Virus record (IMG/VR): IMGVR_UViG_2541047751_000012 | Origin: a virus | Taxonomy: Duplodnaviria > Heunggongvirae > Uroviricota > Caudoviricetes | DNA: 5,451 nucleotides | Reading direction: 5' to 3' (one strand) | Shown: positions 2,792 through 5,451 of the stretch, piece after piece | Layout: each line of letters starts with the position of its first letter | Position numbering within the stretch: the stretch's first letter is position 1 | Notes under the pieces: generated by a model | The model's database searches: none | Seen by the model: the letters and a program-made list of their open reading frames with translations, nothing else | Told to the model about the DNA's origin: nothing | Translations under genes and position numbers: made by a program

Positions 2792-2997
2792 GTGTTAATC
2801 CTCAAAACTTTATGCCCGGGCGCAAAAGTACGTGTTTTGTCTTTGCTTATTCGCCACCCGTCTTTACGGGCCTCTTTTGCACAACCAGACCATGACGTAC
2901 CGATATACTCACCGAAGTCTGGCACTGGATATACACCTTCCGTACACTGGCGACAATCACAATAGAGATGCATGGTGTAACTTGCGGCAATAGCCAT
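2788..2997 (-). CDS. Small Cys-rich protein, 69 aa, putative zinc ribbon; function unknown
   Basis: The six-frame ORF reaches 3039, but that would overlap the upstream gene. The ATG at 2997-2995 lies 1 nt after the upstream stop with AAGAGAG just upstream. The product (MAIAASYTMHLYCDCRQC...SGC...) has a CxCxxC cluster plus one more Cys. Its stop overlaps the next gene's ATG (ATGA). Confidence 0.55.
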   Translation of the reverse strand: MAIAASYTMHLYCDCRQCTEGVYPVPDFGEYIGTSWSGCAKEARKDGWRISKDKTRTFAPGHKVLRINT

Positions 2998-2998
2998 A

Positions 2999-3778
2999 TC
3001 ACTCTCTTTTTCCCTGAAGCATGGCAGCGTGGCAGGCATCCTCTACGCCCTTAACTGCATCTGCGCAGTAGTTATAGCGATTGCATTCCACTAACTTCTG
3101 CCTGAGATTTTCAATTGCTTGCGCGACATCAGCCTGTATTACAGGAACTGGCGGAACGGCTGTCTGCTGCTCTCGAACGTCATTAGTCGCTATCGGTTCT
3201 GCTGCCAACTGACTGGCATATTTGTTAATGGTAACGATAAGCTCTTGCTCAGCCTCATCCAGACAATCACCGATACCTCGCCTGTCGCCGTCAAAATCAT
3301 CGAAATCAGCACGAACTCTGGCAAATTTCAGGATTGCGGACAACACCTCACCAGGAATTACCGGAGAGTTGGTTGACGTTTCCGAAATTTCCCGAAAATT
3401 ATTGGTTGACGAATTCGCGTTTTCCCGAAAGTTTCCGGCATGAAGCATAGCCGCGCGGCAGGCGTTCCAGCCTTCATCAAAACCGACTATGCCATTATTT
3501 AAAGTCGGACGAGCATCTGGCACCACCGGCACTGGCTTGGCTATATATAGCGGCTGAACATACCAACCCTTTGATAACCAACTGTCAGCAATGTTTTTAC
3601 TCCTCGTTATTGCCGGAATACCTAAGCCATTGTCTGAATGCAGCCATGCCACCGGATTCTCTTCCAGCGATGCCAGAGCAATTTCATAAGCCCGGCGCTC
3701 AACATTGTCTCGCACATCCAAACTGCTGATACGCTCTTTGATTTCTTTAATCAGTTCTTTGTCGGTAAAAGTGCTCAT
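2999..3778 (-). CDS. Modular prophage protein of unknown function, 259 aa; paralog of the 2051-2791 gene; contains an 11-aa tandem repeat
   Basis: The six-frame ORF starts at 3799, but the ATG at 3778-3776 (MSTFTDKELIK...) has a GGAGA Shine-Dalgarno at about 6 nt and sits 1 nt after the Ea22-like stop. It shares the N-terminal helix and the NSPVIP motif with the 2051-2791 product, with an 18-nt identical DNA core. It carries the internal repeat NFRENANSSTN / NFREISETSTN. Confidence 0.75.
   Translation of the reverse strand: MSTFTDKELIKEIKERISSLDVRDNVERRAYEIALASLEENPVAWLHSDNGLGIPAITRSKNIADSWLSKGWYVQPLYIAKPVPVVPDARPTLNNGIVGFDEGWNACRAAMLHAGNFRENANSSTNNFREISETSTNSPVIPGEVLSAILKFARVRADFDDFDGDRRGIGDCLDEAEQELIVTINKYASQLAAEPIATNDVREQQTAVPPVPVIQADVAQAIENLRQKLVECNRYNYCADAVKGVEDACHAAMLQGKRE
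3369..3434 (-). repeat. Two-copy imperfect 33-bp tandem repeat inside the 2999-3778 CDS
   Basis: ttggttgacgtttccgaaatttcccgaaaatta versus ttggttgacgaattcgcgttttcccgaaagttt, about 24/33 identical and in frame (11 codons each), encoding NFRENANSSTN / NFREISETSTN on the minus strand. Confidence 0.7.
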
Positions 3779-3779
3779 A

Positions 3780-4544
3780 TCAATCTCCATTGGTATCAAT
3801 GTTTACAGCCTGACAAGACTCTTTGAGCACCCAGTCAATAGCGTCTTTCCATGCCTCTGTTTCGACTGGTGGATTTTCACGCTTAACCTGTTCATAGAAG
3901 CGCACTGCTTTAACCAGTCCTTCCGGTACTACTGGTGATGGCTGTTTAGCTTCTAAATCAGCAATTCTGTCAACCACGGCATCGACAGCATCTGAAAAGC
4001 CGAACCAGTTGCTCCACTCCGGCTCATCCCCGGTTGCTGCAAAGTACATATCTGCTAAAGCAGATTCAGCATGGTCACGCTCGTTAATGAGTTGCTCTTC
4101 GCTTTTCTCCAGTTCAGCAATACGCTTACCCCCATCCGAGATAACACCTTCGTAATACTCACGCTGCTCGTTGAGTTTTGATTTTGTCTCCTCAAGCTCA
4201 ACTCTCAGCTTCCCAACAGTAAGAGCAATATCCTCGTTCTCCTGGTCGCGGCGTTTTATGTATTGCTGGTTTCTTTCCCGTTCATCCAGCAGTGCCAGCA
4301 CAGTAGCCGGATTGGCTGCGGCGATGAATTCAGCATTGGCCTGCTGTTCCATTTGGAAATCTTCATCGAAACCGCTTTCTGGATGCGCTCCTTCAATTCT
4401 GCAAATGGGAATATATCCAGCAACTTCACGATGAATTAGCGCATAATCACCATCAAATCGGCTCTCTCCATATTCGAGCGACCACTCACCACACGTTGCT
4501 TTTTCTGCCGCTTCACGCAGTGCCTGATAGTTAATTTCGCTCAC
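3780..4544 (-). CDS. Ead/Ea22-like coiled-coil protein, 254 aa
   Basis: Long ORF whose N-terminus (MSEINYQALREAAEKATCGEWS) matches my recollection of Ea22-like prophage proteins, with a central charged, coiled-coil-like region (ELEETKSKLNEQREYYE...ELEKSEEQL). The start codon is GTG (4544-4542), overlapping the upstream TraR-like stop (GTGA), with GAGAGG upstream. Confidence 0.8.
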   Translation of the reverse strand: MSEINYQALREAAEKATCGEWSLEYGESRFDGDYALIHREVAGYIPICRIEGAHPESGFDEDFQMEQQANAEFIAAANPATVLALLDERERNQQYIKRRDQENEDIALTVGKLRVELEETKSKLNEQREYYEGVISDGGKRIAELEKSEEQLINERDHAESALADMYFAATGDEPEWSNWFGFSDAVDAVVDRIADLEAKQPSPVVPEGLVKAVRFYEQVKRENPPVETEAWKDAIDWVLKESCQAVNIDTNGD

Positions 4545-4762
4545 TTCGAACCTCTCTGTTTACTGATAAGCTCCAGATCCTCCTGGCAACTTGCACAAGT
4601 CCGACAACCCTGAACGACCAGGCGTCTTCGTTCATCTATGGGATCGCCACACTCACAACAATGAGTGGCGGATATAGTCTGGTAGTTCAGACGACGCATT
4701 TTTATTGCTGTATTGCGCTGTAATTCTTCAATTTCTGATGCTGAATCAATGATGTCCGCCAT
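4541..4762 (-). CDS. TraR/DksA-family C4 zinc-finger protein (lambda orf73-like), 73 aa
   Basis: The translation has the TraR-type motif C-x2-C-x14-C-x2-C (..CCECGDPIDERRRLVVQGCRTCASCQ..), which aligns by eye with F-plasmid TraR (..CEACGNPIPEARR...CVECQ..). The size and the position in the early-left region are consistent with lambda orf73. Confidence 0.85.
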   Translation of the reverse strand: MADIIDSASEIEELQRNTAIKMRRLNYQTISATHCCECGDPIDERRRLVVQGCRTCASCQEDLELISKQRGSK

Positions 4763-4810: not shown

Positions 4811-4845
4811 GAATAATAAAAAAGGAGCCTGTAGCTCCCTGATGA
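4811..4845 (-). terminator. Putative Rho-independent terminator on the minus strand
   Basis: On the minus strand: AGGGAGC-tacag-GCUCC(uu) hairpin (5 G/C-rich pairs plus possible G-U and A-U) followed directly by UUUUUUAUUAUU. On the plus strand the hairpin is preceded by an A-run instead, so it is orientation-specific to the operon direction. Located 16-50 nt after the stop of the 4861 gene. Confidence 0.5.
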
Positions 4846-4860
4846 TTTTGCTTTTCATGT

Positions 4861-5076
4861 TCACCGTTCCTTAAAGACGCCGTTTAACATGCCGATCGCC
4901 AGGCTTAAATGAGTCGGTGTGAATCCCATCAGCGTTACCGTTTCGCGGTGCTTCTTTAGTACGCTACGGCAAATGTCATCGACGTTTTTATCCGGAAACT
5001 GCTGTCTGGCTTTTTTGATTTCAGAATTAGCCTGACGGGCAATGCTGCGAAGGGCGTTTTCTTGCTGAGGTGTCAC
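4861..5076 (-). CDS. Hypothetical small phage protein; 71 aa if started at GTG 5076, or 93 aa if started at ATG 5142
   Basis: The ORF is clear from 4861; the start is ambiguous. The ATG at 5142 has no Shine-Dalgarno and gives a Cys-rich, odd-looking N-terminus (MHFSGSGLHILCAYACRHGACS). The GTG at 5076-5074 overlaps the stop of a 27-aa ORF (GTGA), matching the coupling pattern of the rest of the operon. The C-terminal 70 aa look like a normal soluble protein; I do not recognise the family. Confidence 0.5.
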   Translation of the reverse strand: MTPQQENALRSIARQANSEIKKARQQFPDKNVDDICRSVLKKHRETVTLMGFTPTHLSLAIGMLNGVFKER

Positions 5077-5156
5077 TGAACAAGCCCCATGTCGGCAAGC
5101 ATAAGCACACAGAATATGAAGCCCGCTGCCAGAAAAATGCATTCAGTGGTTGTCAT
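5073..5156 (-). CDS. Candidate 27-aa hydrophobic small protein (MTTTECIFLAAGFIFCVLMLADMGLVQ)
   Basis: Short ORF missing from the six-frame track. Its ATG (5156-5154) overlaps the TGA of the truncated upstream reading frame (ATGA) and its TGA overlaps the GTG of the next gene (GTGA). The product is dominated by one hydrophobic stretch of transmembrane length. No strong Shine-Dalgarno (GAGAGA at about 6-7 nt). Confidence 0.25.
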   Translation of the reverse strand: MTTTECIFLAAGFIFCVLMLADMGLVQ

Positions 5157-5241
5157 ACCTGGTCTCTCTCATCTGCTTCTGCTTTCGCCACCATCATTTC
5201 CAGCTTTTGTGAAAGGGATGTGGCTAACGTATGAAATTCTT
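5153..5241 (-). pseudogene. 3' remnant (about 28 codons) of a minus-strand phage gene, apparently truncated by the IS insertion
   Basis: An open frame (..EFHTLATSLSQKLEMMVAKAEADERDQV*) runs from the IS boundary to a TGA at 5155-5153, with no start codon context at its 5' end. That end abuts the IS left terminus at about 5242. The identity of the disrupted gene is unknown. Confidence 0.3.
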
Positions 5242-5451
5242 TGAACCGCCCCGGGAATCCTGGAGACTAAACTTCCTGAGAAAGAGGTAAACAGGATGAC
5301 TAAAAATACTCGTTTTTCCCCCGAAGTCCGTCAACGGGCAGTCCGTATGGTTCTGGAAAGTCAGAGCGAATATGACTCACAATGGGCGACAATTTGTTCC
5401 ATTGCTCCAAAGATTGGCTGTACGCCGGAGACTCTGCGTGTCTGGGTTCGC
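5242..5451 (+). mobile_element. IS3-family insertion sequence, left end (IS629/IS1203-like from memory); continues beyond the window
   Basis: A terminal sequence TGAACCGCCCCGGGAATCCTGGAGACTAAACTTCC begins at 5242, followed 54 nt later by an orfA-type gene. This matches my recollection of the IS629 left inverted repeat and leader. The change in gene orientation and content at this point is abrupt. Confidence 0.8.
5296..5451 (+). CDS. IS3-family transposase OrfA (helix-turn-helix), N-terminal 52 codons; partial at window end
   Basis: ATG at 5296 preceded by GAAAGAGG at about 8 nt. The translation [52 protein letters not shown] matches the IS629-type OrfA N-terminus as I recall it. Open to the end of the window. 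Confidence 0.85.

Follow-up and report, generated by a model that had tools for sequence, protein, structure and literature searches.

IS629 and the lambda exo-xis region

The best described counterparts of the insertion reported here are the IS629 elements of O157:H7 and STEC prophages. IS1203 and IS3411 are recognised isoforms of this element, its target duplications are 3–4 bp long, and 62% of the IS629 copies in O157 are located in prophages (PMC3271280). The locus studied here has the same 1310-bp element, the same OrfA/OrfB layout, a duplication in the same size range and the same preference for prophage DNA. It differs from the STEC cases in its host, which belongs to an ExPEC-type lineage (relatives CFT073, clone D and ATCC 25922), and in its target, a site between codons 35 and 36 of orf63 that was found occupied in five finished genomes only.

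The gene that was hit also has well studied relatives. Experiments with lambda and phi24B have given Orf63 a pro-lytic activity, seen as faster and more efficient induction (PMC5575149, PMC10869804). Deletion of orf63 in these phages leaves lytic growth in place, while induction comes later and is weaker and host survival is higher (PMC5575149). In lambda, Orf63 is dimeric and tightly intertwined, built from two helices and a strand; residue E36 is conserved, and the substitution E36K unfolds the protein (PMC10869804). Both the engineered deletions (Dydecka et al. 2017, PMC5575149) and the NMR structure 8DSB (PMC10869804) concern the same DUF1382 family and the same position in the exo-xis region as the gene discussed here. 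With respect to the structure, the insertion divides the protein between residues 35 and 36, beside the conserved E36 and where helix alpha-2 starts. In contrast to the engineered deletions, the present knock-out arose naturally by insertion and may have polar effects; it sits in a prophage with further lesions and is known from sequence.

Two further kinds of event provide points of comparison. In rearrangements caused by recombination between IS copies, identical inverted elements border the rearranged block; likewise, two 100%-identical inverted IS629 copies flank an inverted block in the scaffold studied here, and their duplications are mismatched. The established inversions of this type differ in that the one considered here rests on a gapped draft scaffold. 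Deletions adjacent to an IS have a parallel in the relative SFAD3, which carries a deletion joint with a single IS and without a target duplication. Classical polar IS insertions in the early operons of lambda are suppressed by N. The present locus shares with them an IS inside an N-antiterminated early operon; the gene hit here, as read from the DNA alone, is distal and dispensable.

Identity of the insertion sequence

The window (the whole stretch of DNA analysed, 5,451 nt) is an exact substring of the draft scaffold KE699784.1 (GCA_000457515.1), and its minus strand holds the left arm of a lambdoid prophage together with a run of small accessory genes. We consider it highly probable that a 1310-bp IS629 transposed into the lambda orf63 homologue of this lambdoid prophage, located at icd in an ExPEC-type E. 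coli. The first base of the IS3-family element is window position 5242, with the sequence TGAACCGCCCCGGGAATCCTGGAG..., and the alignment of IS-free relatives to the window, at 99.9% identity, ends exactly at 5241. The left 210 bp of the element (5242–5451, plus strand) comprise the left terminal inverted repeat, a 54-nt leader and codons 1–52 of orfA, and are truncated by the end of the window. These 210 bp match elements of E. coli CFT073 and of the ECOR38 phage-21 int record at 210/210 positions, and an element annotated as 'IS3 family IS629' (LC567824.1) at 208/210. Because the near-identity extends over the whole visible stretch, the match is not a chance one, and with the full-length comparison given below the element is classed as IS629 proper. 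The sequence-only reading, which had called it an IS3-family, IS629-like element, was therefore correct, and it placed the left end of the IS (5242) and the edge of the adjoining frame (5153) accurately to the base.

Within the window, orfA starts with an ATG at 5296, and its first 52 codons match Pfam HTH_Tnp_1 above the cut-off (E = 9e-6); no Rfam model matched anywhere in the window. The window holds 210 bp of the IS and the remainder of its own copy falls in an assembly gap, so that length and integrity are taken from identical sister copies. At the identical junction in the E. coli O2:H1 strain HM670, the full-length IS is 1310 bp long, and the 1310-bp copies of the sister genomes are 99.5% identical, with the same boundaries, to the annotated IS629 of phage Stx2_499 / LC567824.1, well above the 95% taken as the threshold for assignment to a named IS629. 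The HM670 copy encodes an OrfA of 108 aa, with HTH_Tnp_1, and an OrfB of 296 aa that matches the rve (DDE) domain at E = 8e-28 and the NCBIfam IS3 transposase model NF033516 at 314.6 bits (cut-off 160). In the sister copy orfA and orfB lie in the 0 and -1 frames, a slippery AAAAAAA run is found ahead of the orfA stop, and the ALIL pseudoknot RF01497 is recognised at 120 bits. The ends read TG...CA and form imperfect terminal inverted repeats, with 23 of the first 25 terminal bases complementary between left and right; the left end was read in the window itself, the right end both in HM670 and in the scaffold from which the window comes.

The left junction of the IS occurs at 100% identity in five of the 5426 complete E. 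coli genomes. The trinucleotide CTT at 5239–5241 is the left copy of a 3-bp target-site duplication, whose right copy was read in finished sister genomes such as HM670. The insertion point lies between codons 35 and 36 of orf63, with CTT duplicated and clean in four finished sister genomes. In a three-way alignment, the empty site of 'clone D i14' aligned base for base to both IS junctions, again with CTT duplicated. The 3-bp target duplication for which the sequence-only reading had suggested looking is thus this CTT. At orf63 in HM670 the duplication is CTT/CTT, and the other IS629 copies are bordered by GAC, ACC, ATC and ATA. The draft contig DBBREN010000039.1 (GCA_044944065.1) has as its position 1 the equivalent of window position 5239, the insertion site; its strain is probably another carrier of orf63::IS629, in which the contig was broken at the repeat.

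The interrupted gene

The minus strand from 5239 to 5156 reads EFHTLATSLSQKLEMMVAKAEADERDQV and is followed by a stop codon at 5155–5153. No start codon precedes the IS, which bears out the earlier description of an open frame that adjoins the element and lacks its 5' start. This feature (5153–5241, minus strand) is the 3' remnant of an orf63 homologue (DUF1382), made up of codons 36–63 and the stop, and its IS-free allele is the 63-aa protein WP_000548537.1. When the IS and one CTT are removed, a 63-aa protein is restored: MHKASPVELRTSIEMAHSLAQIGVRFVPIPVETDEEFHTLATSLSQKLEMMVAKAEADERDQV.

A site in non-coding DNA, with the start-less frame as a chance ORF, might be considered from the remnant alone, which scores 23.8 bits against DUF1382, just below the 27-bit cut-off. 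The reconstructed protein scores 106.4 bits against the same model (Pfam PF07131, cut-off 27) and is identical to lambda Orf63, for which a structure has been solved (PDB 8DSB), at 58 of 62 positions (94%). Clone D i14 has an annotated 63-aa 'DUF1382 family protein' that spans the insertion site, and the uninterrupted 400-bp site occurs in 2880 of 5426 complete genomes, with the DUF1382 annotation among the matches listed. A chance frame is refuted by these four lines of evidence (the clone D i14 annotation, the 8DSB match, the DUF1382 score and the genome survey), and we regard it as next to impossible. Clone D i14, ATCC 25922 and an O18:H1 strain are among the IS-free relatives that match up to 5241, and the order exo, DUF1317 (orf61), DUF1382 (orf63), orf60a-like gene, TraR (orf73), ea22 is that of lambda DE3 in BL21(DE3). 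The comparison with IS-free relatives that had been proposed thus rules out an intergenic position of the IS: as had been suggested, the element cuts a coding frame of a leftward (pL-type) lambdoid operon, annotated in IS-free homologues as an intact 63-aa DUF1382 gene. By its homology with lambda orf63, the disrupted gene belongs to the exo-xis region and is small and dispensable.

The split leaves a 5' piece of 35 codons, which in HM670 runs on into the antisense IS as an 88-aa chimera, and the start-less 3' piece of 28 codons found in the window. RefSeq annotation of the sister genomes already contains a split DUF1382 pseudogene and an IS3-family transposase. Since the lambda dimer requires helix alpha-2, which starts at about residue 34–36, we infer that head and tail should both be non-functional and that Orf63 function is lost. 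Taken alone, such a lesion is expected, by analogy with the lambda and phi24B deletions, to be mild: induction would be delayed and weakened, and the phage would not be killed. The suggestion that a gene further upstream, in the recombination or early-regulatory module, had been disrupted did not hold; it is the start-less frame itself that was hit, and the genes from exo to N are intact.

Operon context and transcription

On the minus strand, the window begins with a phage-21-type integrase gene (1–1143) and an excisionase gene (1133–1369); an Ea22-like gene (3780–4544) and an intact orf73 homologue with a TraR/DksA zinc finger (4541–4762) lie closer to the IS. The position of lambda orf60a is taken by an intact 71-aa gene (4861–5076, minus strand; WP_000188870.1), which is downstream of the IS in the operon. 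Between this gene and orf73, a terminator-like hairpin with a T-run is predicted on the minus strand at 4822–4840; a terminator has been predicted at the same position, between orf60a and orf73, in lambda and phi24B (PMC4195576). The first frame downstream of the IS is an unannotated, hydrophobic candidate ORF of 27 codons, MTTTECIFLAAGFIFCVLMLADMGLVQ (5073–5156, minus strand). It is overlap-coupled on both sides, through ATGA with the orf63 stop and through GTGA with the start of the next gene. Neither the 71-aa orf60a-like protein nor the 27-aa ORF had a family match in Pfam and NCBIfam searches.

Upstream of the insertion, exo, bet, gam, kil, cIII, ral and N are all intact. The N antiterminator, encoded at the head of the operon, is a 90-aa protein in HM670 (PF25694 N_peptide, E = 1.5e-32), and the same gene was called in the window's own scaffold; pL and nutL fall outside the window. 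The transposase gene runs antiparallel to the leftward operon. When the element and its two junctions were scanned for promoter and terminator consensus sequences, no sigma-70-like promoter was predicted in the IS or at its ends on either strand; on the operon strand the scans found one weak, terminator-like hairpin of 5 bp at the right end of the IS.

These observations bear on the sequence-only reading, according to which the insertion separates the downstream accessory genes from pL, or drives them by outward transcription, and in this way makes the prophage cryptic. A 1.3-kb IS within an operon is classically polar, the weak hairpin at its right end lies on the operon strand, and the prophage is defective in this lineage. 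The outward variant found no support: the IS is antiparallel, no outward promoter is predicted, and, once the promoter scans had returned no promoter-like site, the idea that the IS drives the downstream genes was abandoned. As for severing, the N antiterminator is present in the operon, and phages without the IS already have the terminator-like hairpin ahead of the downstream genes (PMC4195576). Because this hairpin (4840 to 4822) precedes the genes beyond the orf60a homologue, their expression from pL would always need a terminator-resistant polymerase. Given that the operon encodes N and that the downstream genes already lie behind the hairpin, a simple insertion therefore need not sever them from pL, and N-antiterminated leftward transcription could, on the gene content of the operon, proceed across the IS. 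N-modified polymerase reportedly overrides IS polarity, a finding attributed to Adhya, Gottesman and de Crombrugghe in 1974. Nor does the orf63 lesion account for the state of the prophage, since lytic growth of lambda and phi24B is not blocked by deletion of orf63 (PMC5575149), and the inactivating lesions lie elsewhere: O::IS629, to which HM670 adds J::IS629 and a terminase stop codon. Overall, we consider it improbable that the insertion rendered the prophage cryptic by cutting off or redirecting transcription. Separation from the natural promoter would apply only if the inversion discussed below is real, or in the SFAD3 deletion.

The source scaffold and a putative inversion

The window ends 2 bp ahead of a 770-N gap inside the IS (positions 7557–8326 of scaffold extract L010). 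Past the gap, the scaffold continues with 155 bp of the IS629 right end, which adjoin the 5' part of the replication gene O and not, as in a simple insertion, the front half of orf63. The O'-cII-cro-cI-N-exo block of the scaffold, which was read up to exo only, is 100% identical to HM670 over the adjoining 7.2+ kb and reversed in orientation. In HM670 itself, O is interrupted by a second IS629, inverted and 100% identical to the orf63 copy, with GAC as its target duplication. The scaffold that contains the window shows CTT to the left of the IS and GTC to its right, while the two HM670 copies have CTT/CTT and GAC/GAC; the GTC flank is the reverse complement of the GAC duplication in O.

The arrangement could be genuine, with the inverted orf63::IS629 and O::IS629 copies having recombined and the IS in the window forming one joint of the inversion. 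KE699784.1 does join the IS right end to O', with the adjoining 7.2+ kb matching inverted HM670 sequence at 100%, the flanks CTT and GTC are mismatched exactly as inversion by IS x IS recombination predicts, and the two copies are mutually inverted and 100% identical in a sister genome. The same pattern is expected, however, from a scaffolder that mis-orients a segment bounded by collapsed inverted repeats. The join crosses a 770-N gap in a repeat, both arrangements share the four junction sequences, and the orientation is decidable only by read pairs that span the IS; because of the gap, an inversion and a scaffolding error are indistinguishable. A synthetic query for the orf63'-IS629-O' joint was found in 0 of 5426 complete E. 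coli genomes, which include four finished relatives with both copies. The draft also has a strain-unique patch at 3476–3516, possibly a paralogue-related assembly effect. A search for a second example through the neighbourhoods of Ea22-like proteins found none and returned mostly IS-free neighbourhoods. On balance, a real inversion is a serious possibility, and one that we judge slightly the less probable of the two outcomes.

If the inversion is true, orf63', the orf60a-like gene, orf73, ea22, xis and int follow pR-cro-cII-O', and 'O-P-ren-nin-Q follow pL-N-...-exo-orf61-'orf63. The phrase 'severed from natural promoter' would then be literally correct. The distal arms of the early operons might in that case have been swapped, so that the prophage would be rewired and locked in while retaining sitABCD, iss and the porin gene; we hold this outcome to be plausible, if short of an even chance.

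The patch at 3476–3516 lies in an ORF at 2999–3799 (minus strand). Its 39 bp are wholly unlike the 65-bp patch of all finished relatives and resemble, at ∼95%, DUF551-type paralogues of other prophages. The ORF is intact in the window (259/266 aa), and in the relatives it is annotated as a frameshifted pseudogene. Its 259-aa version (2999–3778) is on record for a single contig, KE699784.1, and look-ups with the 266-aa and 263-aa versions gave no match. Gene conversion, mosaicism or a paralogue-related assembly effect could explain the patch.

Decay of the prophage and other IS629 insertions

The prophage is defective in the source assembly in either orientation. The O'-IS629 junction is present and the replication initiator gene is split, so the prophage is not fully functional. 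The sequence-only reading, which had considered it cryptic or defective, was thus right as to the outcome; the cause is the splitting of O by a second IS629 and not the hit in orf63. Finished relatives show nested lesions: orf63::IS629 is found in five (n = 5), O::IS629 in four of the five, and J::IS629 in HM670 only, where the tail gene is split with an ACC duplication. The large terminase subunit of HM670 also has an internal stop codon; O, terminase and J are intact in the IS-free relative clone D i14. The further IS629 copies of HM670 (locus 4978–6287 and 33832–35141) are 100% identical, one lying in O (TSD GAC) and one in J. SFAD3 (NZ_CP176645.1, locus ∼46138–47537) has the orf63'-IS629 junction, and on the right its IS is fused to the 3' end of a gene for a tail fibre ('head spike fiber'). 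This copy is without a target duplication; ∼38–41 kb of the prophage are deleted, and int...orf63' and sitABCD are retained. The orf63 copy was probably the first in a series of IS629 events by which the element is being dismantled.

From these comparisons, the following history can be proposed. IS629 inserted between codons 35 and 36 and duplicated CTT, with its transposase antiparallel to the leftward operon, so splitting orf63 into a 35-codon head and a start-less 28-codon tail, with the presumable loss of Orf63 function. The upstream recombination and early regulatory genes stayed intact, and N-modified transcription could have crossed the IS. The orf63 copy later served as a recombination substrate; the source assembly has a second, inverted IS629 in O. 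In the scaffold, flanks are exchanged between the two copies and the ∼8.4-kb 'orf63-exo-N-cI-cro-cII-O' block is inverted. In SFAD3, the same copy borders the ∼38–41 kb deletion.

Insertions of the same type were also seen at nearby positions. In CFT073, the same prophage has an IS629 in xis (locus 4233–5542, TSD ATC) and an ISEc10 in ea22 (8443–10858), with orf63 intact. The phage-21-type int of ECOR38 (AF017626.1), 99% identical to the int of the window, is split by an IS629 (TSD ATA). Two unrelated prophages carry independent IS629/IS1203 insertions, in EC96 within orf63 (locus 2837–4146, window-equivalent 5172–5178) and in 8_140198 within orf61 (locus 3345–4654), 141–143 bp to the right of the window site, and both elements point the same way as the window copy. 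We considered, and set aside, a hot spot for IS629 targeting and selection favouring orf63 loss, as the independent hits are too few and IS629 is generally prone to insert in prophages.

The prophage carries several cargo genes (HM670 locus 10507–14480 and 38524–41973): an ompC-like porin gene, iss (bor-like), a TonB-family gene and sitABCD, the last of which adjoins the right attachment site within icd. The interval that separates N from the cI-like repressor (locus L001, 15730–17036) contains genes for a DUF1828 protein and a 185-aa hypothetical protein, a pair at the position of lambda rexAB that may be an accessory or exclusion module.

Significance

The event described here is a textbook IS629 insertion into prophage DNA and a case of ordinary prophage decay, which is already known and is nothing new in kind. 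Beyond annotation it matters little, and its mildly interesting point is whether the scaffolded inversion is genuine. For those who work with draft assemblies, it illustrates that a window ending in a repeat may end at a scaffold gap, and that the neighbouring sequence in the draft may not be the true neighbour. The insertion adds a natural knock-out allele of orf63, a little-understood pro-lytic gene. It also shows an ExPEC prophage at icd, with sitABCD, iss and a porin gene, being immobilised stepwise by one IS, for which inversion or deletion between the IS copies may come next.
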